Source of the DNA: a virus
Lineage: Duplodnaviria; Caudoviricetes
DNA length: 64,000 nt
Direction: 5' to 3' (one strand)
IMG/VR virus record: IMGVR_UViG_3300030061_004132
Coordinates: 29,724 to 93,723 of that record
Shown in pieces: positions 31,282 through 59,344 of the stretch. The notes beneath the pieces are model-generated. The model had not been told where the DNA came from. It searched no databases and was given only the letters and a program-made list of their open reading frames with translations. Position numbers and translations under genes: made by a program. How positions within the stretch are numbered: position 1 is the first letter of the stretch; every line of letters starts with the position of its first letter.

Positions 31282-31356
31282 GTTCCCTCCTGTTGTGTAC
31301 TACACTTAACCGATTGAGAAGAGGACGCAAGTTTATTTTTTGCGTCCTCGCTTTCT

Positions 31357-31599: not shown

Positions 31600-31653
31600 G
31601 TTGACCTCTGCTGTTGTTGTTGTGCTTACAATATAATCGATTGGGTTAGGCTG

Positions 31654-31818: not shown

Positions 31819-31856
31819 CATTCCCCCGCTGTTGTGTGATAACTAATAACAAGCCC

Positions 31857-32078: not shown

Positions 32079-32133
32079 GTTCTTTTCTCCTTGTGTGTTC
32101 CTCTTAACTGGTCTGGGAACAGGTGCAAGTTTT

Positions 32134-32469: not shown

Positions 32470-32524
32470 GCTACCTCCTACAAACATCTATTAACCGTTC
32501 CACGTCAGTGTGCAAGTTTTTTAT

Positions 32525-33031: not shown

Positions 33032-33090
33032 GCTGCTCTCCTGTGTTGTGAATACCACTTAACTGATTGGGTCGAAGGAGCAAGTTTTTT

Positions 33091-33522
33091 TTAGGTGAAA
33101 GCGTGAGCGGGGATAACTACCTCCTCCCCAGAACCAGTATCGGCAGTATCCAGTTCATACCCCGCTGCCATCAACTCTGCGGTGTGCATTTCGTTGGTAG
33201 GGGCGTCGTCAATCGATTCGACCCCATTACACTCACCAGAGATTCGGGGGGTGCCATTAATCGGTGGGTAAACGATGCGATTGGTGTCATGAACCTCGAC
33301 CTCGCTCCCCCTCACCACTCGCTTGTGTACTGCGATGATGTATCTGGTGCAGTCATTAAAGATGTGGTGTTCGTCTGGGTTGGTGACCCCAATGACCTCT
33401 CCCTCGACGTAGTACCACCTATCGCGCTTTCCATCGGGAAAGTCATGCGAGCGCACCACCGTCCCAATAAGTGCCTTCGCGTTTTTAAGATTGACATAGT
33501 GTCGTTCGCCTGCTGTTGCCAT
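33091..33522 (-). CDS. early hypothetical protein
   Basis: Own promoter and leader. Confidence 0.65.
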   Translation of the reverse strand: MATAGERHYVNLKNAKALIGTVVRSHDFPDGKRDRWYYVEGEVIGVTNPDEHHIFNDCTRYIIAVHKRVVRGSEVEVHDTNRIVYPPINGTPRISGECNGVESIDDAPTNEMHTAELMAAGYELDTADTGSGEEVVIPAHAFT

Positions 33523-33675
33523 GTTATCCCCCTGTTGTCTGCTTATCTTTTATCAAAGAATCTTGTAACTGTCAAGAACAAATATTTAAAACCTTCTGTA
33601 GTCTCTCGCAACGCTTGTTCGCTCCAAGGTAGCACAGCGATAGCAAGTAGCGAAAGAGCGGAAACGGCAACCAAC

Positions 33676-33816
33676 TCAAACACGGACCCTTCCTCGGCAT
33701 GCTTTCTTGCTCGCCTGCTTCCTGCGGTCAGGATGACGACCCGCCTTTGCAGACCGTGCCATCATAGCCAACACCAGTGGGTTTCGGCGCTTGGGTGCTT
33801 TGTTTTTCTTTGCCAT
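33676..33816 (-). CDS. small basic early protein
   Basis: MAKKNKAPKRRNP...AGRH; own promoter. Confidence 0.6.
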   Translation of the reverse strand: MAKKNKAPKRRNPLVLAMMARSAKAGRHPDRRKQASKKACRGRVRV

Positions 33817-33842
33817 GTTCTCTCCCTCGTTGTATTTACAAT

Positions 33843-34151
33843 CTAACAAGCAATCGGACTCTTGGCAAGTTTTTCTTCCCACTCCTCAAGTCGAGCCATA
33901 GCCGTAGGCGATTCATACTCAACAGCCATCTCCATCCTAAGCTGCTCCCAACGCCGTGCCCACTGAACCGCGTCTTGAGGAGTGGCGTCCTTTGCGAAGG
34001 CGGTCTGGAACGTCTCAATGAGTTCTTGCTCGCCCCACGCCTCGTCAATCGAGGTGCAGCTTCCACGACCCACCATCGCATCGCTACGAATGGCGTCAAT
34101 CATGCTTTGCTCTTTTGCCGTGGGAATCATCTTCCAGTGTTCTACTGCCAT
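33843..34151 (-). CDS. early hypothetical protein
   Basis: VGRGSCTSIDE; own promoter. Confidence 0.65.
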   Translation of the reverse strand: MAVEHWKMIPTAKEQSMIDAIRSDAMVGRGSCTSIDEAWGEQELIETFQTAFAKDATPQDAVQWARRWEQLRMEMAVEYESPTAMARLEEWEEKLAKSPIAC

Positions 34152-34213
34152 GCTGTTCTCCTGTGTTGTGTAAACATCTTAATGGGTTCTGGTTTAAGAG
34201 TCAAGGATTTTTT

Positions 34214-34651
34214 TTAGTAACGCCCTCGCATATTATTATGGTAGATTGTTTGGTAGCACTCATGCTCAGTGACCTCGCGGCCCAACTCCCTAAAGAGGGT
34301 CTTCAGTTTTGTGTTCAGTCCACGCGCCTTCATCATGGCGGCGGTGCGACTAATCTCCCCGTCACAGTGGAGGTTCTCTGGCGAGAGTGCGGCATAAATG
34401 CTATCAATCTCTTTAATAATCTCCAGTTCTGTGCGATATGGTCGCTCATATGTATTCGACAGCGAAGGGCTGTCGTGCCACACAAGACTCTTTGGCACTC
34501 GCCATGACCCACCGCTGTCGTACTGACCACGGGTGCCGCGAGTTTCCATCGCGGTAATCTTGTAGCTCTTCTGGTTCACCTTGGTGATGCGACCACGGGT
34601 CTTCTCACCATTGGGGCGACCAAACAATACTGTGTCTCCAACTCTAAACAT
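34214..34651 (-). CDS. early hypothetical protein (LSPENLHCDGE family)
   Basis: SH3-like N-terminus plus LSPENLHCDGEI. Confidence 0.7.
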   Translation of the reverse strand: MFRVGDTVLFGRPNGEKTRGRITKVNQKSYKITAMETRGTRGQYDSGGSWRVPKSLVWHDSPSLSNTYERPYRTELEIIKEIDSIYAALSPENLHCDGEISRTAAMMKARGLNTKLKTLFRELGREVTEHECYQTIYHNNMRGRY

Positions 34652-34680
34652 GTTCTCTCCTCTGTTGTTGTGTATACTAC

Positions 34681-34947
34681 TTAACTGGTTGTTGATTGGT
34701 TGTCAAGGGCTGGAGAGAGCACGTCGCCGATGCGCCGGTCGAAGGTGCGGCTGGGGTCGTCAATGTTTTCTACAACCCTCAACTCCCACTCCCAAGCCTC
34801 ACTAATGAGGTTGGCCCACCTAACAGTGCATAGAATATCTTCTGTGTCCGTGGGGTTCACCATCCGCACACCAATAATCACGCCAAAGTCTTCCTCTAGT
34901 TCTTGTGTAGTTTCGTTAAAGTATCTTACTGTGTTGCCTACTTGCAT
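34681..34947 (-). CDS. early SH3-like protein
   Basis: MQVGNTVRY; own promoter. Confidence 0.6.
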   Translation of the reverse strand: MQVGNTVRYFNETTQELEEDFGVIIGVRMVNPTDTEDILCTVRWANLISEAWEWELRVVENIDDPSRTFDRRIGDVLSPALDNQSTTS

Positions 34948-34972
34948 GTCGTCCCCCGTTGTTCCGTACTGT

Positions 34973-35128
34973 CTACTTAACCGACTGTAGCTTCTTGTCA
35001 ATGTTTGATGCGAGAAAACGTGCGGTGGCACGGTTGTGGCACTTCACCTTATCTCCATTGGGGCTAACTACCCAGAAGGAGTTACCCGAAAGAAAAATCT
35101 TTGCTCCACTCTTAACCTTGCTGCTCAT
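34973..35128 (-). CDS. small early protein
   Basis: SD GGGAGGGAG before MSSKVK. Confidence 0.5.
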   Translation of the reverse strand: MSSKVKSGAKIFLSGNSFWVVSPNGDKVKCHNRATARFLASNIDKKLQSVK

Positions 35129-35138
35129 GCTCCCTCCC

Positions 35139-35255
35139 TTAACTAACATCATAGACAACATATTTACCCCACTCAAGAAGGACGATTAGGTCGTCGTTAC
35201 CAGAGACGAAGGTCATCGCTTCTGCTTCCCATAAAAAACTCTTTACTTCTTTCAT
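35139..35255 (-). CDS. 38-aa early protein (not in ORF track)
   Basis: MKEVKSFLWE...; own promoter and leader. Confidence 0.5.
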   Translation of the reverse strand: MKEVKSFLWEAEAMTFVSGNDDLIVLLEWGKYVVYDVS

Positions 35256-35282
35256 GTTCTCTCCTGTTGTTGTACTAGTAGT

Positions 35283-35522
35283 TTAATGGGTCGGCTGGGA
35301 TGCGTCAAGCATTTTCGCATTTTCATATACTCGGATGTACTCCCAACAGGAGCCTACCTGCCTACTGCCTTCGCCGCCCACACAGTGCCTCCATGCTGAC
35401 TTGGCTCCCTTTTGTTTGCTGTACCTGCGAGCCGAGATGTCGCTGTGAAGGAATACGTCCTGCACGCCATGTTCAAAACAGATTTTGTAGGTACGCCCAA
35501 CGCTTGTGTAGTTAAGTGGCAT
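35283..35522 (-). CDS. early hypothetical protein
   Basis: Coupled (TGATG) to the upstream ORF. Confidence 0.55.
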   Translation of the reverse strand: MPLNYTSVGRTYKICFEHGVQDVFLHSDISARRYSKQKGAKSAWRHCVGGEGSRQVGSCWEYIRVYENAKMLDASQPTH

Positions 35523-35623
35523 CAGATAACTCCGTGGACTGTGAGGTTAGCCCAGACGAGCACGGTGCCGTAGACCCAGAGCAGCATCATAGCTGGGTGG
35601 GTGATAAAGTCTGCTAAGTCCAT
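35522..35623 (-). CDS. 33-aa membrane peptide (not in ORF track)
   Basis: MDLADFITHPAMMLLWVYG...; own promoter. Confidence 0.5.
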   Translation of the reverse strand: MDLADFITHPAMMLLWVYGTVLVWANLTVHGVI

Positions 35624-35654
35624 TTTGTTTCTCTCTCTGCTTGGGTTGTGAAGT

Positions 35655-36062
35655 CTATTTAACCGATTTCAGAACCTTGTCAACCTCTTTCCAGTTAACA
35701 AGTCCAGATACATCTCGGTCATAAGCGTCCATAGTGCCGGGATCAGCAACCATATCCTTGGCCTGCTCGTCACTAATACTATCGATACCGTGACTCCAAA
35801 GGTACGCACCAGCCCAGCGCCAACCGTCCTCATAGGTCCAGCCACCAGTAAACTTTCCATGATAGCTTCGGGCAAGTTCCCAGATTCTTTTGTGGTTTTG
35901 GGAGGTGTCCGCAACGCTAGCGAGCAACTTCCGATTACTTTCTCCACGCCGGTAGACAGCAAAACTGTCGCTCATGCAAGCGGACCAATCATGATAGCGA
36001 CACAGCCGCGCATACTCAGACAGGTTACACTTCGCTTTTGTTACATCAACCAAACCAATCAT
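35655..36062 (-). CDS. early hypothetical protein
   Basis: HDWSACMSD...YRRG. Confidence 0.65.
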   Translation of the reverse strand: MIGLVDVTKAKCNLSEYARLCRYHDWSACMSDSFAVYRRGESNRKLLASVADTSQNHKRIWELARSYHGKFTGGWTYEDGWRWAGAYLWSHGIDSISDEQAKDMVADPGTMDAYDRDVSGLVNWKEVDKVLKSVK

Positions 36063-36112
36063 TGTTCTCTCCCGTTGTTGTGTATATATCTTAATGTATT
36101 GAGCGACCCCTG

Positions 36113-36406
36113 TCAAGCATTAATGATTGTTTGAATCACATCCTGCCCCAAAGTATTTGTGCCACCGTGAGCATCGATAACCTTTTGCACCACTTCGATG
36201 GGCACCCAACCATAAACGGTGTCGGTTGGTTTATCTGGCTCCTCAGCGTATTCCATAAGCAGTTCTTCTCTCTGGGAAGGGAACCCCACCTCCACAGCGG
36301 TCCACGGTCCCACGTCGCTGCGAGGCGAACAGTAGCAAAACCCATTTGCTTGCACGCTCATAGTAAAACCATCATTACATCGAATCTGTGGGAAGTTCAT
36401 GTCCAC
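36113..36406 (-). CDS. conserved phage hypothetical protein
   Basis: CNDGFTMSVQA...SPR...VEVGFPS...TVYGWVP. Confidence 0.75.
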   Translation of the reverse strand: MDMNFPQIRCNDGFTMSVQANGFCYCSPRSDVGPWTAVEVGFPSQREELLMEYAEEPDKPTDTVYGWVPIEVVQKVIDAHGGTNTLGQDVIQTIINA

Positions 36407-36630
36407 CCTCCCGCGATGGCAACGGACGCTACCTCTTCATAGGAAGGAACACCGTCACCGTCATCATGCCACGGGCTACCTTCATTAAGGCACACACCAT
36501 GCTCGTCATAAAAGTCATAAAACCTATCGTCGTCGTTCTCTGGCTCCTTGCCTTGCCAGCATAGCTCTACGTCGATAGTGCGGCCACCCATCTTATATTG
36601 TGCGACCACTTCGGTGTGTAGTTTTGACAT
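36397..36630 (-). CDS. early hypothetical protein
   Basis: GVCLNEG motif; own promoter. Confidence 0.6.
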   Translation of the reverse strand: MSKLHTEVVAQYKMGGRTIDVELCWQGKEPENDDDRFYDFYDEHGVCLNEGSPWHDDGDGVPSYEEVASVAIAGGWT

Positions 36631-36652
36631 TGTGTTCTCTCCTGTCTTGTGT

Positions 36653-36868
36653 TTATATCTTAACGGGTTGTGTCTTGGTTGTCAAGGCATAAAAGTCTTG
36701 CCACGTCATGAAGCCTACACCATCTACCGCCATCCCACGAGGGCTGATAAATATATTCTCTTTCCTTTCGTCGTCTCTGCCTGAAACATTAAACCTCACA
36801 GACGACCACTTCTCCGTGCCCTGATCCGTCTCTTCATCAGTACCATCGGTCATAAAAATACGAAGCAT
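36653..36868 (-). CDS. early hypothetical protein
   Basis: Own promoter and leader. Confidence 0.6.
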   Translation of the reverse strand: MLRIFMTDGTDEETDQGTEKWSSVRFNVSGRDDERKENIFISPRGMAVDGVGFMTWQDFYALTTKTQPVKI

Positions 36869-36929
36869 TGTTCTCTTCTCCTGTTGTGTTTACTACTTAA
36901 CAAGTTGTTGTTTGGTTGTCAACCAGAAT

Positions 36930-37060
36930 GTGGGGGGTTCCCAACTTCCCCCCACCGAGCACAGCCTGACCTGAGAATCACTCTCACGCTTACGCAACCA
37001 CGAGATAGCTTACTGCTCGTAAGACTTACCCACTATCTCTCTGGCCTGTGCCCCCCACGG
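36930..37060 (-). ncRNA. candidate structured RNA element
   Basis: Nested stems, GNRA loops on the minus strand, G6/C6 hairpin; no ORF. Confidence 0.5.
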
Positions 37061-37069
37061 CCCTCCTTC

Positions 37070-37399
37070 TTATCCCTCAAGAGCGGAGTTTAAGGATGCT
37101 AGCATCTTTTCAACATTACGAAGTGCCCGCCCGTCCCGACCACCAACATTCCAAGTTTTAATCTGGCCTGGGCCTACGTCGTAGTAACCATAGTTCGGTC
37201 CAGACTTCCAGTTGTAGATGGTAGCGACCGAGCCATCATCAAACTTAATATCCCATTCCCAGTCTACTTTGTAGCCATCACTCTCATGAGGTTTGCCAAG
37301 CAGTTTAAGCAAATCCTGATAGTCCGCTTGGACATATCCCCGACGTGAAGTCATATTAACATTAACTTCTTCTTCATTGTGTGTGACGAAACCAATCAT
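37070..37399 (-). CDS. conserved phage hypothetical protein
   Basis: DGYKVDWEW...ATIYNWK...WNVGG. Confidence 0.75.
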   Translation of the reverse strand: MIGFVTHNEEEVNVNMTSRRGYVQADYQDLLKLLGKPHESDGYKVDWEWDIKFDDGSVATIYNWKSGPNYGYYDVGPGQIKTWNVGGRDGRALRNVEKMLASLNSALEG

Positions 37400-37454
37400 T
37401 GTTCTCTCCTGTTGTTGTGTATACATCTTAATGTGTTTTGTTCCGGTTGTCAAG

Positions 37455-37558
37455 TGTTGCGGTTTCGGGATTTGAACCCTCTCCTGATAGTGCTAGGGCA
37501 CACACCCTTTTCCTATCGGTTCCCTACCAGACTGCTGTGTGGCAGCGGGAAACCCGCA
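37455..37558 (-). ncRNA. tRNA-like RNA with no canonical anticodon arm
   Basis: Acceptor-like stem, D-loop TGGTA, GGGTTCAAATCCC T-arm; own promoter, no SD. Confidence 0.6.
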
Positions 37559-37579
37559 TAAAGTTGTTATATTCGTATC

Positions 37580-37756
37580 TTAACTGGTAACCTTTCTATT
37601 GTCAAGGCTGCCTGTTGAATCCACGGCACCGTAGAACGTAAAGACCGCTGTCTCGCAGTCCTCACAGTGGTTAGGCCACTGTGCCCTGTTCTCTTCGTTC
37701 AGCTTGCAGCCACAGACCACACACTTGAACGGGTTTGACACTGGGCGGTGGGACAT
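37580..37756 (-). CDS. 58-aa zinc-ribbon protein (not in ORF track)
   Basis: CVVCG...HCEDC. Confidence 0.55.
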   Translation of the reverse strand: MSHRPVSNPFKCVVCGCKLNEENRAQWPNHCEDCETAVFTFYGAVDSTGSLDNRKVTS

Positions 37757-37759
37757 GCG

Positions 37760-38032
37760 TCACCGCTTTTTAGGCTTAGTGACGAGTCCGTTAACCATCT
37801 TGTAGGCTTGCACGCGGCGAGAAAACTCCTCTCCGTTGCCAGCTTCGTCGTGATAGGCATGAATAATGCCACCGGACGACACGCCAATCCATCGGCTACG
37901 ACGGTTAGTCCATGCAAACTTAACCCACTGCCCGACCCTAAGTCTGGTCCGACCAGACGTAAACCTGTCAATGTTGTTATCATCAATATAGATGGTGGAA
38001 GTGAAACTCCCCAAGTTCTTACTCGCTTTCAT
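37760..38032 (-). CDS. early hypothetical protein
   Basis: LRVGQWV; own promoter. Confidence 0.65.
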   Translation of the reverse strand: MKASKNLGSFTSTIYIDDNNIDRFTSGRTRLRVGQWVKFAWTNRRSRWIGVSSGGIIHAYHDEAGNGEEFSRRVQAYKMVNGLVTKPKKR

Positions 38033-38055
38033 ATTTCCTCCTTGTGTGAAACTAT

Positions 38056-38295
38056 TTATCCTGTTGGCTGTTGACTGTCAACACTTTCTTCAAATAAATC
38101 CTTTAGCTGGTCCTTGTACATCTCTACATCATAAGACCAGCCCTCGTCTGCTGCGAGTTTGCCAACAACGTCTGCATCCCATGCGTCCCTTAGCTTGGCC
38201 TCCGCAAACAGAACCAAGTCTTTCATGTCCCAATACGAAACAATAAGTTCCGCCAAAGTCTCTCGGTTCTCAATGTTGTTCTCAAGGTCAATCAT
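38056..38295 (-). CDS. early hypothetical protein
   Basis: ORF track. Confidence 0.6.
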   Translation of the reverse strand: MIDLENNIENRETLAELIVSYWDMKDLVLFAEAKLRDAWDADVVGKLAADEGWSYDVEMYKDQLKDLFEESVDSQQPTG

Positions 38296-38708
38296 TATGC
38301 CCCCTTTTCATTCGGAGTAGGAAGGACTGGGGTTGCGGGAGGGACATGCAGGAACGCCTGCTCCTCGTCCCACTCAAGCGACACGGTATAGTTCTTGATG
38401 ATGTCCCAAGGGTTCTCGTACCAACCCCCCACGTTACCCTCTGTGGACTCTGGGTAGTCGTGACAAGCCTCCACAATAAGATAATCCTCATCGTCGAAGA
38501 CACTGACTAGTTCGCTATAGAGATTTATCAAACCGTTGTCGCTGGTGTTATACCATTTAATATGCTCTTCATAGAAAAGAACATGGCCATCCTGTGACAC
38601 GCTTGCTGGCTGTACGAACCACTCATCAAGAGTCTTCCTAGACTTTGCGCTAAGATTATCAAACACTTCTTTTTTTAATGCTACTGCGACATCACTACGG
38701 ATACCCAT
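38295..38708 (-). CDS. conserved phage hypothetical protein
   Basis: MGIRSDV...IKWY. Confidence 0.7.
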   Translation of the reverse strand: MGIRSDVAVALKKEVFDNLSAKSRKTLDEWFVQPASVSQDGHVLFYEEHIKWYNTSDNGLINLYSELVSVFDDEDYLIVEACHDYPESTEGNVGGWYENPWDIIKNYTVSLEWDEEQAFLHVPPATPVLPTPNEKGA

Positions 38709-38766
38709 TGTTAGCTCCCTGTTGTTGTATTTACAGTTTAATGAATAAAGTTTGCGCCGTCAAGTA

Positions 38767-38973
38767 TTAATCGTCATAGACTACTGCGTAGCCGTTTGAC
38801 TCGATATAGTCAATAGCGTCTGCTTCCAAAGCATCGATGGTGTCAGGATTTGTGTCATCATCTACATCTTCTAGCCAGTCCACCCAGCCAAGGCTCTCGG
38901 CGAAGCTAAGTGTCTCACCGAAGCACTCGTAAGTGTAGATTGTTTTTAACTGCCCTTGTATGATCTCTGTCAT
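38767..38973 (-). CDS. acidic early protein
   Basis: Own promoter and leader. Confidence 0.6.
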   Translation of the reverse strand: MTEIIQGQLKTIYTYECFGETLSFAESLGWVDWLEDVDDDTNPDTIDALEADAIDYIESNGYAVVYDD

Positions 38974-39030
38974 GTTTTCCCCCTGTTGTGTTTATATCTT
39001 AATCTGTCGTTTCAGTTAAGTCAAGAAGTT

Positions 39031-39396
39031 TTATGCTTCGATGGGTTCTGGGGGGATGATGACAATCGTGTTTTTGGGATCCTTCATGACCTCAGAAAAC
39101 TTCTGGGGGTTGAGGACTCTCATGTCTTCGTCAACTACGACTTGAAGAGCCGCAGCGGGTCCATAGTTTTGGCGGCGCTCTTCTGCGGCTGCGTCCACAA
39201 TAAGACCAGTAAGTTGCTTTGCTAAGTCACCAATCGCGTCAGTCAACTCTGCGGTAGCCTCTTTGCTAGAGTCTTTGTCTACTCCGCTCAAGACAAGGTG
39301 ACCCGTCTCCAAACCAGACTTAACATAAACTAAAGCGTCGGCCAAGTCCAAAACAGTCTCGACGTCCATGCTCACTTTTGCTTCACTATCTTTCAT
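39031..39396 (-). CDS. early hypothetical protein
   Basis: Own promoter. Confidence 0.6.
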   Translation of the reverse strand: MKDSEAKVSMDVETVLDLADALVYVKSGLETGHLVLSGVDKDSSKEATAELTDAIGDLAKQLTGLIVDAAAEERRQNYGPAAALQVVVDEDMRVLNPQKFSEVMKDPKNTIVIIPPEPIEA

Positions 39397-39454
39397 TGTG
39401 TGCTCCCCTTTGGAAACTACTTATTGTTTAATACTGAACCTGTCAAGAAAAAAT

Positions 39455-40095
39455 ATAAAGGGTAGGAGCTTTAGCATATGTAGTCTCCATACTTGTGACC
39501 ATCTGCGGTAGATGTATACACACCGGGGTTTAAGTCCGTTCACAAGTTTCCTCCCTGTTCTTACTATCTCTAGCACGGAACAGCACGCTGTACTATCGGC
39601 AAATGTTCTGCGTTTAATCAGAGAGCTAGCTACTCTCTCATCAAGTGCGCCTTACACTTCAACAGCTTGGTACTGCATCCATGCAAGCCCTTTCGGGACG
39701 ATTGTCAAGTTGCCCCAACAACCAGAGAGGCTTCCACCCCCGATAGTTTGACTCTGCGGAACGACCCGCTTACCAAGAAACCGTTCTTAGTAGTTTGGTG
39801 TTTACCGTTGCCGCGATGAATCAACAAGTCCGCGACTTTCATTGGCAGCACTCCAGCGGTGGTACGCTGACTCTTGCCTTCAAGCACTGAGCAATGTTCG
39901 GGACTACCACGTCCTTTAACCTGCTCCCCTTCAAGTGTAGGCCCCAGCACTTGCTTGAACAAGCTACTATCCTACAAGGGTTTTCTCTATTGTCCGATAT
40001 GGACACCCAAAGAGCGGTAAACAACTCACGGGGGTTTATCGACCGGAGAACTCGGTCACGTTAGTAATGTTAAAGATCAATAAAACTTTCTGTTT
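39455..40095 (-). ncRNA. candidate large (~630 nt) highly structured ncRNA
   Basis: Promoter TTGACA-N17-TACATT (40101-40129), no SD or credible ORF, many local and long-range helices, T-rich 3' end. Confidence 0.75.
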
Positions 40096-40140
40096 CCATC
40101 AATGTAATGTGTTGTGTATTAACTGTCAATAATATTTTTT

Positions 40141-40335
40141 AAAAAAGATGAGGGGTGTCAAGACCACCATAGCAACCTGCTTGACTTCAGGCCACAACAC
40201 AACAGAGAACAACTGCTATGGTGGAGGATACCTTTCGTAGTACCCTTAGAAAATGTAGTAGCCTACTTGACGATTATTGTTTGAATCCCAACATCGGTAC
40301 GCGGTCTACGTTACACTCCCTAATCCCTCACTTGT
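40141..40335 (-). ncRNA. candidate ~190 nt regulatory sRNA with GU-rich seed
   Basis: Promoter TTGACA-N16-TATATT (40342-40369), 5'/3' closing stem plus U6 tail, 11-bp hairpin displaying UGUUGUGUUGUG. Confidence 0.7.
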
Positions 40336-40365
40336 ATTTACAATATAACCTGTCTATAAACCCTG

Positions 40366-40593
40366 TCAAGTAGAATCTGGAAAAGAAAGAACATTATCTT
40401 TGTCGTCCATCTCGGACCCATCTTCCTCTTCGACTTCTTCGACTTCTTGTGCGTGAGCGTCTAGTTCTTTATACCTCTCCAGAATGGAGCGCACGCCCCG
40501 CGCTGCCAGAACAGACTCTTTGGCACAAGACTCTAGGTACTCTGCCATACTCTCGAAAAACTCTAAGGGCAACTCAATCGTTTCTTGATTCAT
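40366..40593 (-). CDS. acidic hypothetical protein
   Basis: Coupled (ATGA) to the ardC-like gene. Confidence 0.6.
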   Translation of the reverse strand: MNQETIELPLEFFESMAEYLESCAKESVLAARGVRSILERYKELDAHAQEVEEVEEEDGSEMDDKDNVLSFPDST

Positions 40594-41459
40594 GCGGCCT
40601 TCTCCTTTTTAATATCGTGCTCCATAATAAGATTTGAAGCCAACTGTGCAGCCTTAGCCGCACGGTACACAGCCCTCTTATCATTACGAAGCAAATCTAG
40701 CCATGAAGAAATGTAACTTTCTTGGTTTTGCATCACCTCTGGGCGTTCGATGCCCAGTTTGGCGCACAAGAACGCCGAACCCATAGAGGCAATCATCTCC
40801 TCAAGAGCGAAGGCCTCTTCGTCTTTGCCAAAGTTATCGCGGTTGAGCCTGCTTTTGTGGCCGGTACTGTGAACCATCTCTTGCAGAAGAGTAGCCCAGT
40901 AGTGGTCCGCTGTGTGAAACTGCTCTGGGTCCGGTAACCCAATGAGATCAGTGTGAGCTTTGTACCACGCGCTGTCCTGTCCGTGCAGAACTTTAGCACC
41001 ATAGCCGCCCAAAATAGCCGAGCATCGTTCATAACCGACACTTGGGTCTTGAGGACAAGACTCAACCACTGGGGGGTTCTCGCACTGCTCCGCATTGTAG
41101 ACACGGTAGTACCGCAAGAAAGGAATCTTCTGGACGGTGCCATCCCCGTTATCCTTGTCAAACATATTCCAGAATACGATTGGGGTCCAGTTCTTGGCCT
41201 CATCGGACTTAATAGTGATTTTAGCCTTCTTAGCTTGATTCCAAGTGATCCAACGAGAGTCGTCGTAACCAGACGCCCAGAGAAGCGGAACATTAATACC
41301 TGTGTAGGTCTGCCCCTCCTCCGGGTCCATCGAGGTCATGTTAAAAGGAAGTCCTGCCATCGCACCATTCTTCCAAGGCTTACTCCACGGGGGAGTGCCA
41401 GCCTCAAGAGCAGTAATGATGCGGTCAGTAACCATTTGATATACATCGACTTTAGCCAT
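40590..41459 (-). CDS. ardC: ArdC-like antirestriction/ssDNA-binding protein
   Basis: YQMVTDRII..LE.G.PPW.KPW; Y.GIN..LL; W.T.NQ; ..HSTGHKSRLNR; EE.IA..GSAFLC. Confidence 0.88.
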   Translation of the reverse strand: MAKVDVYQMVTDRIITALEAGTPPWSKPWKNGAMAGLPFNMTSMDPEEGQTYTGINVPLLWASGYDDSRWITWNQAKKAKITIKSDEAKNWTPIVFWNMFDKDNGDGTVQKIPFLRYYRVYNAEQCENPPVVESCPQDPSVGYERCSAILGGYGAKVLHGQDSAWYKAHTDLIGLPDPEQFHTADHYWATLLQEMVHSTGHKSRLNRDNFGKDEEAFALEEMIASMGSAFLCAKLGIERPEVMQNQESYISSWLDLLRNDKRAVYRAAKAAQLASNLIMEHDIKKEKAA

Positions 41460-41692
41460 TTGCCTCTCCTTACTTACAATAACATATTAACAAAGTGTCG
41501 CTTAGCTGTCAAGCGACTCTGTGGGTTCCCAATACCAGTGGTCTTTATGTTCAGAGTAGCTATCGGACTCGATATACTCTAACCACTGTTCTTCTAGTTC
41601 AAGTTCTTCGTTGTCTTCCGGGTCGTTGTTCATGACCAATCTCCTCTTGCTTTCAAAATAAACTTAACCGACACACTTTGGTGCGTCAAGGA

Positions 41693-45401: not shown

Positions 45402-45457
45402 ACTATAACTACTCTGCTAACTTGCGTCAACAACCTTTTGTCATATAAATATAAGAG

Positions 45458-45541
45458 TGCCCAAGGCGGGACTCGAACCCGCAAGCCCAATGGGGCGACA
45501 GATTTTAAGTCTGTTGTGTATACCTATTCCACCACTTGGGC
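45458..45541 (-). tRNA. tRNA-Leu(TAA)
   Basis: Cloverleaf with long variable arm; anticodon loop CTTAAAA. Confidence 0.93.
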
Positions 45542-45545
45542 AAAG

Positions 45546-45622
45546 TGGTACGCCCTAGAGGATTCGAACCTCTGACCCTCGGCTTAGAAGGCCGATGCTC
45601 TATCCAACTGAGCTAAGGGCGC
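45546..45622 (-). tRNA. tRNA-Arg(TCT)
   Basis: Cloverleaf; loop CTTCTAA; encoded CCA. Confidence 0.95.
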
Positions 45623-45629
45623 AAAATCC

Positions 45630-45821
45630 CTAAGCTCTTAACTTGTCGAGGTGTTGCCTCTGTTCCTCGTACTTTCCAAGATTAGCCTCGACGTAATCTT
45701 TTACCTTCAATAGTTTATCAAGATAATGATATTTTGTCCAGCCATCATTTCGTGGACTTTCAACTTCTATAATCCATCGCTGTAGCTGTCCGATAACTTC
45801 CGTCTCAGAAAATCTGTTCAT
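45630..45821 (-). CDS. hypothetical protein
   Basis: SPRNDGWT motif; SD GGGAG. Confidence 0.6.
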   Translation of the reverse strand: MNRFSETEVIGQLQRWIIEVESPRNDGWTKYHYLDKLLKVKDYVEANLGKYEEQRQHLDKLRA

Positions 45822-46098
45822 CCTACTACTCCCGTAAAAAGAATAACGTAGAAGCCCAAAAGAGCCATCATAGAATATTCAGCGTAATCCATACTCCCTC
45901 CATACATAAAATATTAACGTCTTGGTTACAGGCTGTCAAATCTTATTTGCCCTGACCCCGATACTTTTTTCGGTAACCCTTCGGAACAGTGCCGTTTGAG
46001 TTGAGGGCTTTAAATTTTGTCCTCTTCCCATTTCCAATGCTTGTTTTCTTACCAAGACCGTGTTTAGTGGCCCTCTTATTATTGCCTTTAGCCATTTT

Positions 46099-46290
46099 TT
46101 ACTCCTTATAATAGTTAGAAAATCCCATAAAGGTTGGTGCCCAAAGCCCAACAAAAAGTGCTAACCGCTCAATATGAGCCGCGTCTACACCACCTGTGTT
46201 CCAGATAACAACTGAGCCTGCAATCGACACAATTGTTGCCACTAGAAACCCATTCGAGATTTTATTATTCTTTTCTAAATACTTCATCAT
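46099..46290 (-). CDS. small membrane protein
   Basis: ERLALFVGLWAPTF. Confidence 0.6.
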   Translation of the reverse strand: MMKYLEKNNKISNGFLVATIVSIAGSVVIWNTGGVDAAHIERLALFVGLWAPTFMGFSNYYKE

Positions 46291-46338
46291 TCCTCCTGTT
46301 ATTGTAATAACCTATTTACATTTCTTGTCAACTAAAAA

Positions 46339-46411
46339 TGAGTCTTCAGGGACTCGAACCCTGAACCTACGGATTAAAAGTCCGGTGCTCTACCAATTGA
46401 GCTAAAGACTC
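46339..46411 (-). tRNA. tRNA-Lys(TTT)
   Basis: Cloverleaf; loop CTTTTAA. Confidence 0.95.
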
Positions 46412-46417
46412 GTAAAG

Positions 46418-46494
46418 TGGTGGGCCTACTGGGACTTGAACCCAGGACCGCAGCTTTATAAGAACTGTGCTCTAACCACCTGAGCTATAGGCCC
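46418..46494 (-). tRNA. tRNA-Ile(TAT)
   Basis: Cloverleaf; stem CAGTT/AGCTG, loop CTTATAA; encoded CCA. Confidence 0.9.
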
Positions 46495-46706
46495 ATAAGG
46501 GTGCCGGTGGTTATCTCTGAACACATGAGACAGTGACCGGAGTATGTCTCGCTTAGGTTCTATGTGCGGTCGTTCAATAACATAATAGTTAAAATTTATT
46601 TGTCAATCAGAATAGTTACATTCGTATTTTCCGTAAACGTAACCTACCCAGAACGCTATAAAGTGCGTTCCCAACATAAGACATAAACTCAAATGACACC
46701 TCCTAT

Positions 46707-46928
46707 TTACATAATATAATTACCATAACCGTTTTCACTAGCACACTCTCGCGAACAATATCCGTGATACAAAATGTGCTCAGGATCTTTTTTGGCTCCA
46801 GACCATTTGGGTAACGACTTACCGCAAGTCGTACAAATCGTAAACTTCCCATACAGAAGACGATTGTCTTCGTCCATCTGTCCGTGCCAAGGCTTCCAAG
46901 CGCCATCGCTCATTATCTCCCCCACCAA
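46707..46928 (-). CDS. small zinc-finger protein
   Basis: CTTCG...YCSREC. Confidence 0.55.
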   Translation of the reverse strand: MVGEIMSDGAWKPWHGQMDEDNRLLYGKFTICTTCGKSLPKWSGAKKDPEHILYHGYCSRECASENGYGNYIM

Positions 46929-46937
46929 TATAAATTG

Positions 46938-47011
46938 CGCCCCTTACTGGATTTGAACCAATGACACGCGGATTAACAGTCCGCTGCTCTAACCAACTGA
47001 GCTAAAGGGGC
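46938..47011 (-). tRNA. tRNA-Asn(GTT)
   Basis: Cloverleaf; loop CTGTTAA. Confidence 0.93.
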
Positions 47012-52017: not shown

Positions 52018-53271
52018 TCAATACCAAATAATTTTATCAAATTGTTTAATGGCTGAGAAGAATTCATCTAACATGTTTTTAGCTTCCTCGTCGTAGTCAC
52101 CATTTCTTGATAGAATCATTTTATCGTTTCCAAACTTGCTCACACCCTTCAAATCTAAAAACTTTTTATTATAAGGGACATGCCCAACTGGAAAGAGACT
52201 GGTGTCCTTGCTACTGGCTCCGGGCATGAGGATAACATCCCAACCCATGCCATCCGCTGGGTTGACTAGCATGGGATATTCGCCGTAATCAAAGGGTAAA
52301 ATGTACGGAGTATCTCCGCCAAACATTTTTGTAGAACCTTTGGGACCATCTATAGATATTGTTTGTTTTGGATCCATTAAAACCATATCAACCAAATCTT
52401 TTTTTGTCGGAACAATAATCTTTTTATTAACTGCCTCGTCAATCTTAGACAGTATATAGGGGGCTGGCGGCGTTCTTGGTTTTTCCCGCTTGAAGTGCCT
52501 CTCTATATCTACCCCAGTTTTTTCCTGTGCTTTGTTCAGCATGTGTGTGTGGGTGCTTAGCCCTTGGAAATCTTTAACAAAAGCTAGAAACCTTTTATCT
52601 TTATTTGTTTCCAAAAACTTTGATATTACCTCTGATAACCTTGCAATCGCCTGTTCATATGCCTGGCCATCAAACGGCACTATTAATTTAGTGTCAAAAC
52701 CATACTTCGCCCAATCCCTCGTAAACAAGCCAGACCTCTGCGCGTCATCCCTAAACAAACCTGGGTTGTCGTACTGTGGGAAATCGCCCCACTTGTCCTG
52801 TGGAACTATGCCTAACGGCTCACTTATTGTAACAAAATACACAGGGTCTATTTCCCCGGCCTTTACCATATTTATAATTTGGTTGTATGACTTGTATATA
52901 CCTCTTGTTGCACAAGCCCAAGGTTTTGTTTTAGCACATGGCACAAAAATAACTGTGCCATACTCCTCAGGCACTTGGAACGATGCAATGGAGTCGTGCC
53001 ATTTTTTAATCTTAGGGTGACTAAATAACTTTAGTGTTTCTCCCGGCGTATACGCTGTTAGTTCCGGTTCGAGTTGCGGGTTACTGTCTTGACTCCTCTG
53101 CACTAGGATGTCCCTAAGTTGTCCCCACTCCTGTTCGGTGGCGTAGCTGTACCTTGATTGCTTTCCTGTCCGCAAAACCTTGGGTGTGCCGAGCTGATTT
53201 TTCTCCGCGTCGGACAACTTACTTATATCTTCATTTATAAAACTGCGCCAGTTTTCAAACAAAAGTTTCAT
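52018..53271 (-). CDS. tagged DUF5591/ArcS-like domain + inorganic pyrophosphatase-like domain fusion
   Basis: MKLLFENWRSFINE; FVPCAKTKPW...SEPLGIVP; PFDYGEYP..NPADGMGWDVI. Confidence 0.65.
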   Translation of the reverse strand: MKLLFENWRSFINEDISKLSDAEKNQLGTPKVLRTGKQSRYSYATEQEWGQLRDILVQRSQDSNPQLEPELTAYTPGETLKLFSHPKIKKWHDSIASFQVPEEYGTVIFVPCAKTKPWACATRGIYKSYNQIINMVKAGEIDPVYFVTISEPLGIVPQDKWGDFPQYDNPGLFRDDAQRSGLFTRDWAKYGFDTKLIVPFDGQAYEQAIARLSEVISKFLETNKDKRFLAFVKDFQGLSTHTHMLNKAQEKTGVDIERHFKREKPRTPPAPYILSKIDEAVNKKIIVPTKKDLVDMVLMDPKQTISIDGPKGSTKMFGGDTPYILPFDYGEYPMLVNPADGMGWDVILMPGASSKDTSLFPVGHVPYNKKFLDLKGVSKFGNDKMILSRNGDYDEEAKNMLDEFFSAIKQFDKIIWY

Positions 53272-53462
53272 TACAACTCTTCCCAAACTTCCATTATTGC
53301 TCGCTTCTTAGAATAACCTTTTTTAACAAGCTCGACAACCTGCCGAGCAGCGTTGTTACCTCAAGTGGGGCGTAGACCCTCTTTATAAAAAATATCATAG
53401 ACCTCTTCATAAAGATCACTCTCGTTTAAAAAAGTCTGCCAGCTTTGCATTAAGTCTTTCAT
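53271..53462 (-). CDS. 63-aa tagged protein with in-frame UGA (candidate selenoprotein)
   Basis: MKDLMQSWQTFLNE...LRPT(UGA)GNNAARQ...EEL; TAA overlaps the next ATG; SECIS-like hairpin follows the UGA. Confidence 0.6.
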
Positions 53463-53470
53463 ATTAATAA

Positions 53471-54307
53471 TTAGGCTTGGTTTCGTAAAGCGGCCATTCT
53501 TTTATGTCTCCGAACGCCCTTTTCTTTTCTTGACTTACGCCTTCGTCGTCTGTGTTTCTTTATCGCTTCTCCCGAAAAAAACTTGGTAATATCCCTCTCC
53601 TTATCTTTTTCGAATAGACCTAACATTCCAATAAGAACCCCCATTAGCATATATACATCAGCGATAGCAGAGTGCCACTGGTCGTTCTTAACGCCGAATG
53701 CTAGGGCTAGGTGGCCCAGTCTTATTGATAAGTCCCTCTTGCCCGCTAAAACATCAGCCAAATTTATATAGTATTCTTCACCAGACTCTGCGCCTGCTTT
53801 AATGAGAGGCTTTAAGAACAATTTGGCTACAGTATATGTATCTAAAACATCGCGTTTGCTCATTTTCATGCCGTACTTTGCCGCTCTAACAGAGACATAT
53901 TTCATATCAAAAGAAGCGTTGTGCGCGATAAGTAAAGAGTTTTCATATTTGCCTATAAAGTCAAGAAAACCTTTTATAAGTTCATCCTCATTTATGTACT
54001 GGAATGATCCGGGGGACTCGCCATAGCGGGTCATGCTCATAATATCCGAATATGACATGCCTCTCCCTTGAAACGGGTAGCACATTCTAAGTCTGGTCAT
54101 TGACAGCAGTCTTGACTTTTCTCTGTATGAGTCAACTACTATCGGGTGCTTCGGGTTACTCATGTCAACAACTATCGCACCGATCTCTGTTAGCTGATGT
54201 TTATGGGAATTGAACCCTAGAGTTTCCGTATCAAAAAAGATCCAAAACTTTTGTTTTTTTTCTTCGATACTCCGTAAAAATAGTTCTGTTGTAGCTTTAA
54301 AAAGCAA
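53471..54307 (-). CDS. DEDDh 3'-5' exonuclease (DnaQ-like)
   Basis: FDTETLG, AHNASFD, LDT, HSAIADV. Confidence 0.88.
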   Translation of the reverse strand: MLFKATTELFLRSIEEKKQKFWIFFDTETLGFNSHKHQLTEIGAIVVDMSNPKHPIVVDSYREKSRLLSMTRLRMCYPFQGRGMSYSDIMSMTRYGESPGSFQYINEDELIKGFLDFIGKYENSLLIAHNASFDMKYVSVRAAKYGMKMSKRDVLDTYTVAKLFLKPLIKAGAESGEEYYINLADVLAGKRDLSIRLGHLALAFGVKNDQWHSAIADVYMLMGVLIGMLGLFEKDKERDITKFFSGEAIKKHRRRRRKSRKEKGVRRHKRMAALRNQA

Positions 54308-57203: not shown

Positions 57204-58769
57204 TCACTCAGTTTCCACTATGGCGAAATTAGTCGTTAATAGGGTTGATGCAGCGGACGCTGCGTTTTGTAAGGCACACCTTGTGACCTTAACAGGGTCT
57301 ATTACACCAGCTTCAAACATATTAACAACTTCATCTTGCACAAAATCATAACCCGTCTCGGGACCTTCGTCAACAATCCTCGACGTAATTATGTCTGGTG
57401 ACAGCCCGGCGTTTTGGCACATCTTCCTAAGGGGCTCGTACACTGATGACATAATAACATCAACACCGACCTGTTGTTCAGGGTTATCTACAGTAATTTC
57501 CAAGTCTTTAGATGCCCTTATGAGCGCTATTCCACCGCCGGGAACCATTCCCTCCATCCTGGCCGACTTAACCGCCTCTAGTGCATCTTCTACTCGGTGT
57601 TTCTTCTCAATCATTTCAACCTCAGTTGCAGCACCGACTTTAATGATTGCTACCCCGCTGGCCAGTCGCGTCACCCTTTCCTGGACCAACTCCGCCTCGC
57701 GGATAGAATCTGTTTGGCCCAATACAGCTTTAAGGGTCTCGATTCTATTATCGATCTCCTCCAGATCGCCCTTGCCTCCAACAATAATTGTTTCATTCTT
57801 TTTGATGAAAATTCTTTGAGCAAGCCCCAGGTGTTCGAGTTTGGCATTCTTTAATTTGATAGAACTGTCAATATACTTTGCGTTTGTGGCAACACAAAGA
57901 TCCATCAAAATGTTTTTCCTCTCCTCACCATACTTGGGTGCTTTAACAGCAACGACCTTCATGGAGCCGCGCATTGAATTCATAATCAGTGCCGCTAGTG
58001 CCTGCCCCTCGATCTCAGGCGAGATAATAACGAGGGCCCTGGCTTCTCTGGCTACCACCTCTAGGATTGGCAGCAAGTCCTGTAGGTTGTCAACCTTCTC
58101 CTCAGTGACCAAAATTAAAGGATCGTCATATTTAACTGATGCCGATCTCTCGTCAGTTATGAATGCTGTCGCCGCGTAACCAGAATCAAACCTAAAACCC
58201 TCAACCAAATCAAGGGTAGTATCAATAGACTTGGCCTCTTCCACCGTTACTGAGCCATCTTTCCCGGCACAGCTAATTGCCTTAGCAACTAAAGCGCCTA
58301 TGTGTACGTCGTTGTTAGAAGAGATGGTGGCAATGTGACGTATGTCGTCCTCAGTTCTGATTGGAGTAGACATCTCGGCCAAACGATCAACCAACCCTGC
58401 CACAGCCTTATCTATCCCCCTCTTTAGCTCTATGGGGGATACTCCCGATAGAACATACTTTTGTGATTGTTCTAAAATAGCCCTTGCAAGCACAGTTGCG
58501 GTAGTAGTTCCGTCACCCGCCAAAGAGTTGGTTTCTTCGGATGCCTGTTTGAGAATTTGTACCGCTGCGTTTTCGAAAGGATCTTCCAATTCAATAAATT
58601 TTGCAACCGTAACTCCATCTTTAGTTATGATCGGATTTTTATTTTTTGCAGCCAAGATAACATTTCTGCCCCTCGGACCTAGTGTAGATGCGACATTGTC
58701 AGTCAGCTTTTTGACACCACTTAAAATTTTGCTTGTTAAAATATTACCGTCACTGTAAATCTTGCTCAT
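57204..58769 (-). CDS. groEL: chaperonin GroEL
   Basis: TLGPRGRNV, ITKDGVTVA, AGDGTTTATVLA, GVIDPVKV; start MSKIY at 58769; no GGM tail. Confidence 0.95.
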   Translation of the reverse strand: MSKIYSDGNILTSKILSGVKKLTDNVASTLGPRGRNVILAAKNKNPIITKDGVTVAKFIELEDPFENAAVQILKQASEETNSLAGDGTTTATVLARAILEQSQKYVLSGVSPIELKRGIDKAVAGLVDRLAEMSTPIRTEDDIRHIATISSNNDVHIGALVAKAISCAGKDGSVTVEEAKSIDTTLDLVEGFRFDSGYAATAFITDERSASVKYDDPLILVTEEKVDNLQDLLPILEVVAREARALVIISPEIEGQALAALIMNSMRGSMKVVAVKAPKYGEERKNILMDLCVATNAKYIDSSIKLKNAKLEHLGLAQRIFIKKNETIIVGGKGDLEEIDNRIETLKAVLGQTDSIREAELVQERVTRLASGVAIIKVGAATEVEMIEKKHRVEDALEAVKSARMEGMVPGGGIALIRASKDLEITVDNPEQQVGVDVIMSSVYEPLRKMCQNAGLSPDIITSRIVDEGPETGYDFVQDEVVNMFEAGVIDPVKVTRCALQNAASAASTLLTTNFAIVETE

Positions 58770-59344
58770 GATACCTCCATATTTTCTGTATGATTTGGCA
58801 AGGTCAAAACACCCACAGAGAACCCGCGCAAGCCAGCATCTCCTTCCCACGCGCCTTCGTTCATTCTGTAACCCTTCTTTATGCTGCTTTGTATAATTTT
58901 AACTCCCAAGTCGGGGGAGTTCTCCGTAGGACAATACGCTAAATAAGTGTGCCCATACGAGCCATTCACCACCTCATCGTCCTCCATCGTTTCCTTGTCA
59001 TTCAACTCAAGTTTGCGCCATCGCTGTATGACATGCCATCTACCAGGAGTTAGCGGTGGGGCCTCGTCCTCAACAATGGCACAATAAGATATGTCTCCAC
59101 CCAATTTTTCTCGGATTGCTTCCAAGGCACTCCAGGGTTTATCGCGATCATAAACATTTGCTCGCTTCCACCAATCAAGGTCTTGACCAGCGTAGCGTGA
59201 CACTGAGCTTTCGCGAACGTCATCCGCTATACTAAGACACCACATTGCACAAAGCGTGCAACATGGCAAGTTTTCTTTAGTGGCGATATGGTTTAATGCG
59301 CCACCTTTGTTCAGGGCAGTCCAACCCTTTATATCTATGTTCAT
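58766..59344 (-). CDS. putative Cys/His peptidase (NlpC/CHAP-like)
   Basis: PCCT...IQRW...GHTYL. Confidence 0.5.
   Translation of the reverse strand: MNIDIKGWTALNKGGALNHIATKENLPCCTLCAMWCLSIADDVRESSVSRYAGQDLDWWKRANVYDRDKPWSALEAIREKLGGDISYCAIVEDEAPPLTPGRWHVIQRWRKLELNDKETMEDDEVVNGSYGHTYLAYCPTENSPDLGVKIIQSSIKKGYRMNEGAWEGDAGLRGFSVGVLTLPNHTENMEVS

Follow-up and report, generated by a model that had tools for sequence, protein, structure and literature searches.

The locus and its features

The subject of this study is a short gene of an uncultured marine T4-like phage (Duplodnaviria; Caudoviricetes) that appears to be read through an in-frame UGA codon. The gene lies in a window of 64,000 nucleotides (nt), which comprises positions 29,724 to 93,723 of the IMG/VR virus record IMGVR_UViG_3300030061_004132, a sequence of 93.7 kb that is classed as linear and has a CheckV completeness estimate of 26%. 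According to an original prediction, which was made from the sequence of the window, the gene encodes a selenoprotein in which the UGA is decoded as selenocysteine (Sec) with the help of a bacterial selenocysteine insertion sequence (SECIS). The following features of the locus are considered here, with all positions given in window coordinates and ORF standing for open reading frame.

53471..54307, minus strand: upstream gene, a DEDDh-type 3′-5′ exonuclease (RNase_T, E 6e-13; phrog_192)
53271..53462, minus strand: proposed recoded ORF, 63 sense codons including UGA codon 34, then TAA; predicted three-helix mini-protein
53421..53462, minus strand: N-terminal tag, codons 1-14, MKDLMQSWQTFLNE, common to other ORFs of the same phage
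53361..53363, minus strand: codon 34, an in-frame UGA that is proposed to encode Sec, in the context RPT-U-GNNAAR
53324..53358, minus strand: SECIS-like hairpin, its lower stem (6 bp) and upper stem (8 bp) separated by a 4-nt bulge in the 5′ strand and capped by a GGU loop
53271..53273, minus strand: TAA stop of the recoded ORF, the last A of which is the A of the next ATG (TAATG); the next gene begins MKLLFENWRSFINE
52018..53271, minus strand: downstream tag-bearing gene, 417 amino acids (aa) from ATG 53271, ending in TGA

The sequence and its translation confirm the arrangement on which the prediction was built. The ORF starts at ATG 53462 on the minus strand with the codons MKDLMQSWQTFLNE, reaches UGA at codon 34, stays open for 29 further codons (GNNAARQVVELVKKGYSKKRAIMEVWEEL) and closes at the TAA at 53273-53271, which is coupled to the next gene as TAATG at 53271. 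Standard gene calling at the locus yields a 33-aa ORF only.

Conservation of the UGA codon and of the reading frame

Relatives of the gene at the DNA level were obtained by scanning viral and metagenome contigs, which returned L002 (on a 62.9-kb viral contig), L003, L004, L005 and L007. The gene DNA of L004 is the same as that of L002, and the comparison is therefore based on five distinct sequences, namely the window, L002, L003, L005 and L007. The last of these is a distant homologue, with a protein identity of about 35%, on a 141-kb viral contig that is estimated to be 78% complete. The scans of viral contigs used the protein, two alignments, the database protein P0015 and three degenerate patterns, and they returned L002 and L007 as the only true members; a relaxed degenerate pattern gave 51 stretches, of which 49 were recognized as chance matches by translation. 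A pattern scan of one genome per prokaryote species produced four chance matches in high-GC genomes and no real match. Among 50,697 GenBank phage records, no tblastn match was found for the database proteins P0005 or P0022, and 3.2 kb of DNA gave no match in GenBank phages.

The homologous codon is TGA in all five distinct DNA sequences, across protein identities from about 90% down to about 35%, and the coding sequence downstream of it is conserved. The original prediction had named a TGG at this site, or a lack of conservation past the UGA, as evidence against itself; wherever DNA was seen, the codon was TGA (5/5) and conservation continued beyond it.

The pattern of substitutions indicates how the region after the UGA is read. 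In the four close sequences, the codon differences after the UGA comprise 46 synonymous and 28 non-synonymous changes in frame 0, compared with 5 synonymous vs. 65 non-synonymous and 5 vs. 67 in the other two frames. Before the UGA, frame 0 has 61 synonymous and 26 non-synonymous differences, and the off-frames on both sides of the UGA have 5-8 synonymous vs. 65-79 non-synonymous differences. Third codon positions account for 16 of the 26 variable columns downstream of the UGA in these four sequences, codons 1-4 past the UGA differ in the third base only, and no start codon is found between the UGA and the conserved part. Therefore, ribosomes appear to cross the UGA without a change of frame. 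Frameshifting was considered and rejected, as the synonymous pattern stays in frame 0 right past the UGA and no slippery motif was seen ahead of it.

At first glance, the UGA could simply terminate translation and leave a 33-residue tagged peptide, with the rest of the gene as an untranslated decayed end or structured spacer, or the TGA could be an error of assembly. The 33-aa ORF produced by standard gene calling agrees with this explanation, and 16 database entries, described below, are shortened calls of the same type. However, the synonymous excess and the third-position variation go on in frame right after the UGA, conservation of the peptide past the UGA extends to relatives at about 35% identity, and the full-length sequence is modelled as a single three-helix unit with a predicted local distance difference test (pLDDT) score of 93. 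Moreover, the TGA occurs in five distinct DNA sequences and in the contigs of three other studies. We consider this explanation highly improbable, and plain termination is already contradicted by the frame-specific pattern of substitutions in the sequences compared.

The possibility of an error was also examined in other assemblies of the same locus. The TGA at 53361-53363 is unchanged in contigs from the runs X3, X5 and X6 of three other studies; these are assembled contigs and not raw reads, and a fourth run, X4, has no coverage at the site. The differences that these runs show within the gene include synonymous changes, such as those in the hairpin bulge (53352) and in a Leu codon (53375). 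The TGA is no sequencing error.

The distant homologue L007 provides a further observation. Besides the internal TGA, its gene has another TGA as its stop codon, in overlap with the next ATG (ATGA). Therefore, one mRNA would carry both a decoded UGA and a terminating UGA, and this combination, as read from the L007 sequence, is the mark of context-specific recoding.

The hairpin and its comparison with bacterial SECIS elements

Folding of the RNA reproduces the hairpin described in the original prediction. The structure begins 2 nt past the UGA with a lower stem, in which UAACAA (53358-53353) pairs with UUGUUA (53329-53324). A CGCU bulge (53352-53349) lies on the 5′ side between the two stems, and the upper stem of 8 bp is formed by GCUCGGCA (53348-53341) and UGUCGAGC (53337-53330). 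The apical loop is GGU (53340-53338), the first G of which is 20 nt after the UGA, and the closing pair is A-U. The minimum free energy (MFE) over 57 nt is -16.4 kcal/mol (z = -2.05; 6 of 200 shuffles were as stable), and that of the upper stem-loop alone is -10.5 kcal/mol.

According to the bacterial SECIS (bSECIS) model, as stated in the legend of Fig. 2 of the 2026 selenoproteome review, the loop has 3-9 nt and carries a G at position 1, position 2 or both, the upper stem has 4-16 bp, the UGA-loop spacing is 16-37 nt and the MFE is no higher than -7.5 kcal/mol (PMC13188914). The same review also gives a loop pattern that is mostly N1-G-[G|U]-N-N2 with N1 paired with N2 (PMC13188914). The phage hairpin lies within all four constraints, with a 3-nt GGU loop, an upper stem of 8 bp, a spacing of 20 nt and an energy of -10.5 kcal/mol, and the A-GGU-U of its loop corresponds to the N1-G-[G|U]-N-N2 pattern.

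By itself, however, the hairpin is only moderately rare. We scanned the record for bSECIS-like hairpins with a simplified, bulge-free version of the published constraints, and 52 of the 3091 TGA triplets (1.7%) passed, nine of the 52 at an equal or lower energy. When the TGA additionally had to be preceded by an ATG-started ORF of at least 25 codons and followed by an open frame of 20 codons or more, three sites were left in the record. The two sites other than the candidate, at window positions 34505 (plus strand) and 37701 (minus strand), are located inside a stretch of raised G+C and probably represent chance. Because the hairpin alone is moderately unusual, the case rests on the comparison with relatives.

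In the five sequences, all 40 cells of the upper helix are paired, compared with only 25.7-48.6% of the cells in a control in which the 3′ partners were slid by 1-3 columns. The upper stem of L007 is GUUCAACA-GGU-UGUUGAAC, and two pairs are changed on both sides, one from C-G to U-A and the other from G-C to A-U. The changes in the 5′ arm of L007 are non-synonymous (Ala to Val, Arg to Gln), and their partners in the 3′ arm are synonymous third-position changes (GAG to GAA, GUC to GUU). In addition, one G.U pair of the upper stem has become A-U in L003 and L007. All of the sequences have the same GGU loop, closed by the same A-U and C-G pairs, at an unchanged spacing of 20 nt.

Among the four close relatives, 18 consecutive nt (53325-53342), including six third codon positions, are invariant. 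This segment starts with the last two paired positions of the 5′ arm, runs through the loop and the 3′ arm and takes in all but one of the six bases of the lower 3′ arm. Just before it, five of six third positions vary, and third-position variation returns further downstream. The variable sites of the hairpin are limited to the bulge, to changes that preserve pairing (C-G to U-G) and to the outermost lower pair. The codons CAG GUU (Gln-Val), which carry the loop, are identical in all five sequences, and the loop and the 3′ arm encode (R/Q)QVVEL, the peptide that is best conserved in the family. This overlap would fit a double constraint acting on both the peptide and the RNA.

We also searched three phage records, G000, G001 and G002, which are fragments that CheckV estimates to be 26, 78 and 35% complete. 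A covariance model of the element (R1) found only its three training sites in these records.

On the basis of these comparisons, we consider it strongly supported that the UGA is decoded deliberately, in frame and in a context-specific manner, beside a co-varying hairpin that falls within the bacterial SECIS definition.

TGA as an ordinary stop codon and the relatives known as proteins

The original prediction stated that UGA is an ordinary stop elsewhere and that the genetic code of the phage as a whole is unchanged, and the record bears this out. TGA terminates 48 of the 131 crude ORFs of the 93.7-kb record, and the genes closed by it include GroEL, a trypsin-like gene and the gene immediately downstream of the candidate. 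Standard-code ORFs span 87.6% of the record, and no suppressor tRNA is present among its five tRNAs and transfer-messenger RNA (tmRNA).

One stretch of the window, at about 29600-41500, has a raised G+C content (0.47-0.56) and ORFs that are short and fragmented under the standard code. A change of code was tried as an explanation and rejected: ORF lists made for 29-42 kb with code 4, with TAG=Q and with TAA=Q left the fragmented ORFs as untidy as before, and TGA is an ordinary stop.

Further relatives are known as proteins only. An exhaustive phmmer search across 1.84 billion representatives, together with three word-seeded searches and a cluster look-up, gave a set of 40 database proteins, the members of which fall into two forms. 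The first form comprises 16 proteins (P0017, P0018, P0026 and P0033-P0045, on contigs of up to 141 kb) that end exactly one residue before the site, as is expected of a standard-code call at an in-frame stop. The second comprises 24 proteins (P0005-P0016, P0019-P0025 and P0028-P0032), all on contigs of 0.5-1.6 kb, that are full length and have a Trp (W) at the site. No residue other than W was found at the site in the database proteins.

Several observations concern the origin of this W. In 12 of the 24 W-forms, a second W follows straight after the C-terminal Leu (...EGLWNH, ...EELWW...), and the sequence then runs into the next gene out of frame, because the terminal TGA has been translated as W, as in a code-4 call. 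The DNA of L007 directly shows the terminal TGA behind such a run-on. P0007 and P0008 are identical to the translations of L002 and L003 except at the site, where the DNA has TGA. Furthermore, shortened forms and W-forms pair within subfamilies (P0033/P0022, P0034/P0020 and P0042/P0025). From these sequences, the W at the site appears to be, at least partly, an artefact of code-4 gene calling. The family thus presents an annotation trap, in which standard-code calls shorten the gene to 33-47 residues and code-4 calls print W; P0043 is an exception among the shortened forms, with 90 residues, and its call begins further upstream. One of the shortened proteins, P0018 (33 aa, from a JGI source), is labelled 'predicted phosphoadenosine phosphosulfate sulfurtransferase'. 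Its sequence gives no support for this name, and the label may have been carried over from a neighbouring gene.

The 24 predicted proteins with W at the site could also be read as the result of TGA having been reassigned throughout the genome or the host (code 4 or 25, with TGA as Trp or Gly). Such a reassignment conflicts with the 48 of 131 crude ORFs that end in TGA, including the full-length GroEL and the adjacent gene, and with the standard-code ORFs that already fill 87.6% of the record. In L007, the family gene itself terminates at TGA. The W-forms themselves also speak against it, as 12 of the 24 continue as L-W-... beyond the C-terminal Leu into the next gene in the wrong frame, and the proteins P0007 and P0008 are translations of L002 and L003 genes whose DNA has TGA. 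Reassignment is already contradicted, and we give it almost no credence.

Selenocysteine insertion or ordinary readthrough

We propose that codon 34 UGA of the 63-residue protein would be decoded as Sec by the SelB/tRNA-Sec system of the host, and that the recoding signal would be the bacterial-type SECIS hairpin located in the coding sequence just 3′ of the UGA. SelB would bind the GGU loop, Sec would be the residue inserted, and the phage would depend on its host's selA, selB, selC and selD. We believe that Sec insertion of the SelB/SECIS type represents the best explanation of the data and that it is probably correct, although with considerably less assurance than the deliberate decoding itself. 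Thus, one part of the predicted selenoprotein, the deliberately decoded UGA with its bacterial-type SECIS hairpin, is upheld by the relatives; the other part, Sec as the residue, is what we infer, and no Cys homologue was found to accompany it.

The resemblance to the selenoprotein genes of bacteria, for which fdhF of Escherichia coli is the prototype, is close. In both, a conserved in-frame UGA is directly followed by a stem-loop, the frame continues, and TGA keeps its normal role as a stop elsewhere in the genome. The 8-bp upper stem, the small loop starting with G-G-U, the spacing of 20 nt and an energy below -7.5 kcal/mol are also of the bacterial kind. The candidate differs from these genes in that it belongs to a virus of bacteria, has no Pfam or fold match and no Cys homologue, and has no sel genes on the phage fragments, on which selA was not searched for. 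The fdhF element has a bulged U in its upper stem; the phage hairpin is without this bulged U and instead has the 4-nt bulge between its stems. The loop of the fdhF element presumably resembles that of the phage hairpin.

The alternative that deserves the most attention is programmed readthrough of the UGA by an ordinary tRNA, such as tRNA-Trp, which would yield products of 33 and 63 residues in a set ratio, with the hairpin either stimulating the readthrough or serving another role. The conserved UGA without any Cys form in the 40 database proteins agrees with it, as do the three phage fragments in which no Sec machinery was found, and a fixed ratio of two products would likewise keep TGA over TGG. 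A precedent exists in phage Qbeta, where a leaky UGA leads to the A1 protein through the insertion of Trp, with no SelB-type hairpin known to be involved. The phage candidate is like A1 in being a phage gene lengthened past a UGA. However, it differs in having a co-varying SECIS-type hairpin, and its extension holds the most conserved residues of the family. With the best-conserved residues located in this downstream half, the 63-residue form appears to be the principal product rather than a small extended fraction. The hairpin also speaks against programmed readthrough, as it fits every bacterial SECIS constraint and shows a conserved GGU loop, a constant spacing and compensatory changes in its stem, and we know of no hairpin-stimulated UGA readthrough in bacteria. 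We therefore regard programmed readthrough as an unlikely explanation, yet as one that has to be taken seriously.

A number of observations weigh against Sec insertion or weaken the evidence for it. Some of the 12 W-forms without the run-on may carry a real TGG at the site. The original prediction had looked to homologues with Cys at codon 34 for support, and Cys occurs at the site in none of the 40 database proteins and in none of the five DNA sequences. Nearly all selenoproteins have Cys homologues, according to the available parts of two recent articles (PMC12013277; PMC13188914). With regard to the hairpin, the three doubly changed pairs that were observed were reached by 15 of 500 shuffles, and the covariation, which derives from five sequences with one divergent lineage, is supportive and not conclusive. 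The stem overlaps a strongly conserved peptide, and part of the nucleotide conservation could thus be a constraint on the protein. A search of Rfam with 53200-53520, up to E = 10, found no SECIS and no credible family; this carries little weight, and bacterial SECIS elements are described as poorly covered by Rfam in the available text of a 2026 preprint. The selC and selD genes that the original prediction had proposed to look for elsewhere in the phage did not appear: no tRNA-Sec was found in G000, G001 and G002 at the Rfam cut-off of 47, the two best scores of the tRNA-Sec model (43 and 42 bits) belonging to genes that ARAGORN identifies as tRNA-Leu(UAA), and neither selD nor selB was found in these three fragments, in which selA was not searched for. 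The host could not be recognized from GroEL, as the closest matches in phage records (Flavobacterium, Vibrio and Acinetobacter phages, 42-45% identity) point to no host.

Comparison with other viral systems

Viral selenoproteins have been described in poxviruses. According to the available part of a review on viral recoding, molluscum contagiosum virus and fowlpox virus encode glutathione peroxidase (GPx) selenoproteins, and the SECIS of fowlpox virus is located within the coding region (PMC8310308). The phage gene shares with these genes a UGA-Sec codon that is borne by a virus and would be decoded by the machinery of the host, and the fowlpox SECIS is also intragenic. In contrast, the poxvirus genes are captured cellular genes with a eukaryotic SECIS in animal viruses, whereas the phage gene has a bacterial-type element and no cellular homologue by the pattern scan, which gave chance matches only. 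Stop codon recoding is also known on a genome-wide scale in phages, where, according to the portion of the report available, it affects many, mostly late, genes and often involves a suppressor tRNA (bioRxiv 10.1101/2021.08.26.457843). In these phages, as in the candidate, a gene runs past a standard stop codon. The candidate differs in that a single codon in a single gene is concerned, with TGA acting as a stop elsewhere and without a suppressor tRNA.

No paper on bacteriophage-encoded selenoproteins was returned by full-text literature searches. In its available sections, the 2021 review of viral recoding names the poxvirus GPx genes only (PMC8310308), and the words 'phage', 'virus' and 'viral' are absent from the available parts of the 2026 selenoproteome review (PMC13188914), the BSepDB paper and the deep-Sep paper (PMC12013277).

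Sec insertion is known so far in cells and in the two captured poxvirus GPx genes. If our proposal is correct, phages would exploit the SelB system of their hosts. The mechanism would be a known bacterial one operating in a new setting, which is that of a bacterial virus and a new family of Cys-free, three-helix mini-proteins. The gene would be a marker of hosts with the Sec trait. It would also expose the annotation trap described above, in which gene callers shorten the gene or print W via code 4.

The predicted protein and its N-terminal tag

An AlphaFold2 model based on 18 family sequences has a mean pLDDT of 93.0 and a predicted template modelling score (pTM) of 0.75. The modelled helices comprise residues 2-27, 32-47 and 52-62, and residue 34 is located in the first turn of helix 2. 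The first turn of a helix is a usual position for a reactive Cys or Sec. No cysteine was found in any family sequence examined, no conserved CxxU-type partner is present, and we saw no redox partner motif with a second Cys, Ser or Thr. Both neighbours of the site are variable, with T, A, V, G, S or D before it and G, A, R, Q or L after it. In a protein free of Cys, a Sec located where helix 2 begins could form a reactive centre with a redox or a thiol- or metal-binding role. If Sec is inserted, it would be a lone reactive selenol, and a thiol, redox or metal target is our guess.

The candidate protein matched no Pfam family. A Foldseek search against the PDB had a best E value of 0.37 and gave no fold match at E <= 0.001, a fold search of BFVD had a best E value of 0.01 with nothing at E <= 0.001, and a search of the ESM Atlas with P0005 gave no usable match. 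The BFVD entry A0A516M6C0, a viral protein of 50 residues, aligned over 46 columns with a root mean square deviation of 0.8, a template modelling (TM) score of 0.87 on the target and an identity of 24% (E 0.01). Judging from the models, this protein may be a distant relative that lacks the tag.

The tag follows the pattern MK.L..(W/F)..(Y/F)(L/I)NE and opens at least eight ORFs of the record, all eight of which end it in (L/I)NE. The tagged proteins include one that is DUF5591-like and one that is nucleotidase-like. Conservation in the tag is 0.71 at third codon positions vs. 0.82 and 0.85 at the other two. With third positions the most variable, it is chiefly the peptide that is constrained.

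The codons of the next gene's tag (window 53227-53272) gave an additional observation. Dozens of contigs from four marine runs, which are otherwise unrelated, match about 45 nt at this position and nothing else, at 80% or more, and diverge on both sides; the summed word depth reaches about 550 vs. 2-14 on the flanks. Many different genes of ocean metagenomes seem, from these matches, to begin with this tag.

The internal proteins of phage T4 carry an N-terminal MK... capsid-targeting sequence that is cut by the gp21 prohead protease after (L/I)-x-E. The tag resembles this sequence in being short, N-terminal, of the MK... type and present on unrelated phage proteins, and in ending in (L/I)-N-E. 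In addition, the related phages encode proteins of the T4 type: the capsid protein Gp23 was found in the close relative G002 and in the distant G001 (E about 1e-62), and G001 was the only one of the fragments G000, G001 and G002 to yield a gp21-type prohead protease (Peptidase_S77, E 1.5e-35). Neither Gp23 nor a gp21-type protease was found in the fragment that makes up the window's own record. The tag also differs from the capsid-targeting sequence, as its sequence is not that of T4, and distant members are without a clear (L/I)-x-E, such as MNEIFDAWRE. On the analogy with T4, it is plausible that the tag is a virion-targeting signal, and the N-terminal MK...W..FLNE of the candidate could act both as a capsid-targeting signal of the T4 style and as a signal for cleavage by the protease. 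The original prediction had suggested that the protein may be packaged in the head. In its fullest form, this proposal describes a family of mini-selenoproteins with an obligate Sec, no Cys forms and no other cysteine in the protein, in which a reactive selenol would be packed in advance into the heads of T4-like phages of the sea and would enter Sec-using hosts together with the DNA. The 21st amino acid would then be in viral use, in a gene that functions only where the host has SelABCD. We regard this scenario as a speculation that is rather doubtful, and more so than programmed readthrough.

Gene layout and surroundings

The TAA of the upstream exonuclease gene and the ATG of the recoded ORF are 8 nt apart, and no Shine-Dalgarno-like sequence was found ahead of the ORF's own ATG. 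The final codons of the recoded ORF (GGGAAGAG) sit at the expected Shine-Dalgarno place of the downstream gene, which has a weak match to DUF5591 (PF17884, E 3.7e-06). The full-length GroEL gene is located at window 57204-58850 on the minus strand (phrog_5725, E 1.8e-139), with the profile covering positions 7-533 of 540.

The tmRNA and the tRNA cluster are located at window 2540-2893 and 45457-47011, and the tag peptide of the tmRNA is ANNNNHFELALAA. The five tRNAs of the record are Leu-UAA, Arg-UCU, Lys-UUU, Ile-UAU and Asn-GUU, and the related record G002 has the same tRNA order as the record of the window. In G001, ARAGORN identified an unusually long tRNA-Asn(GUU) of 97 nt (L016 1496-1592; region of G001:C1:111696-111786), which scores merely 20 bits with the Rfam tRNA-Sec model and may contain an insertion or an intron.

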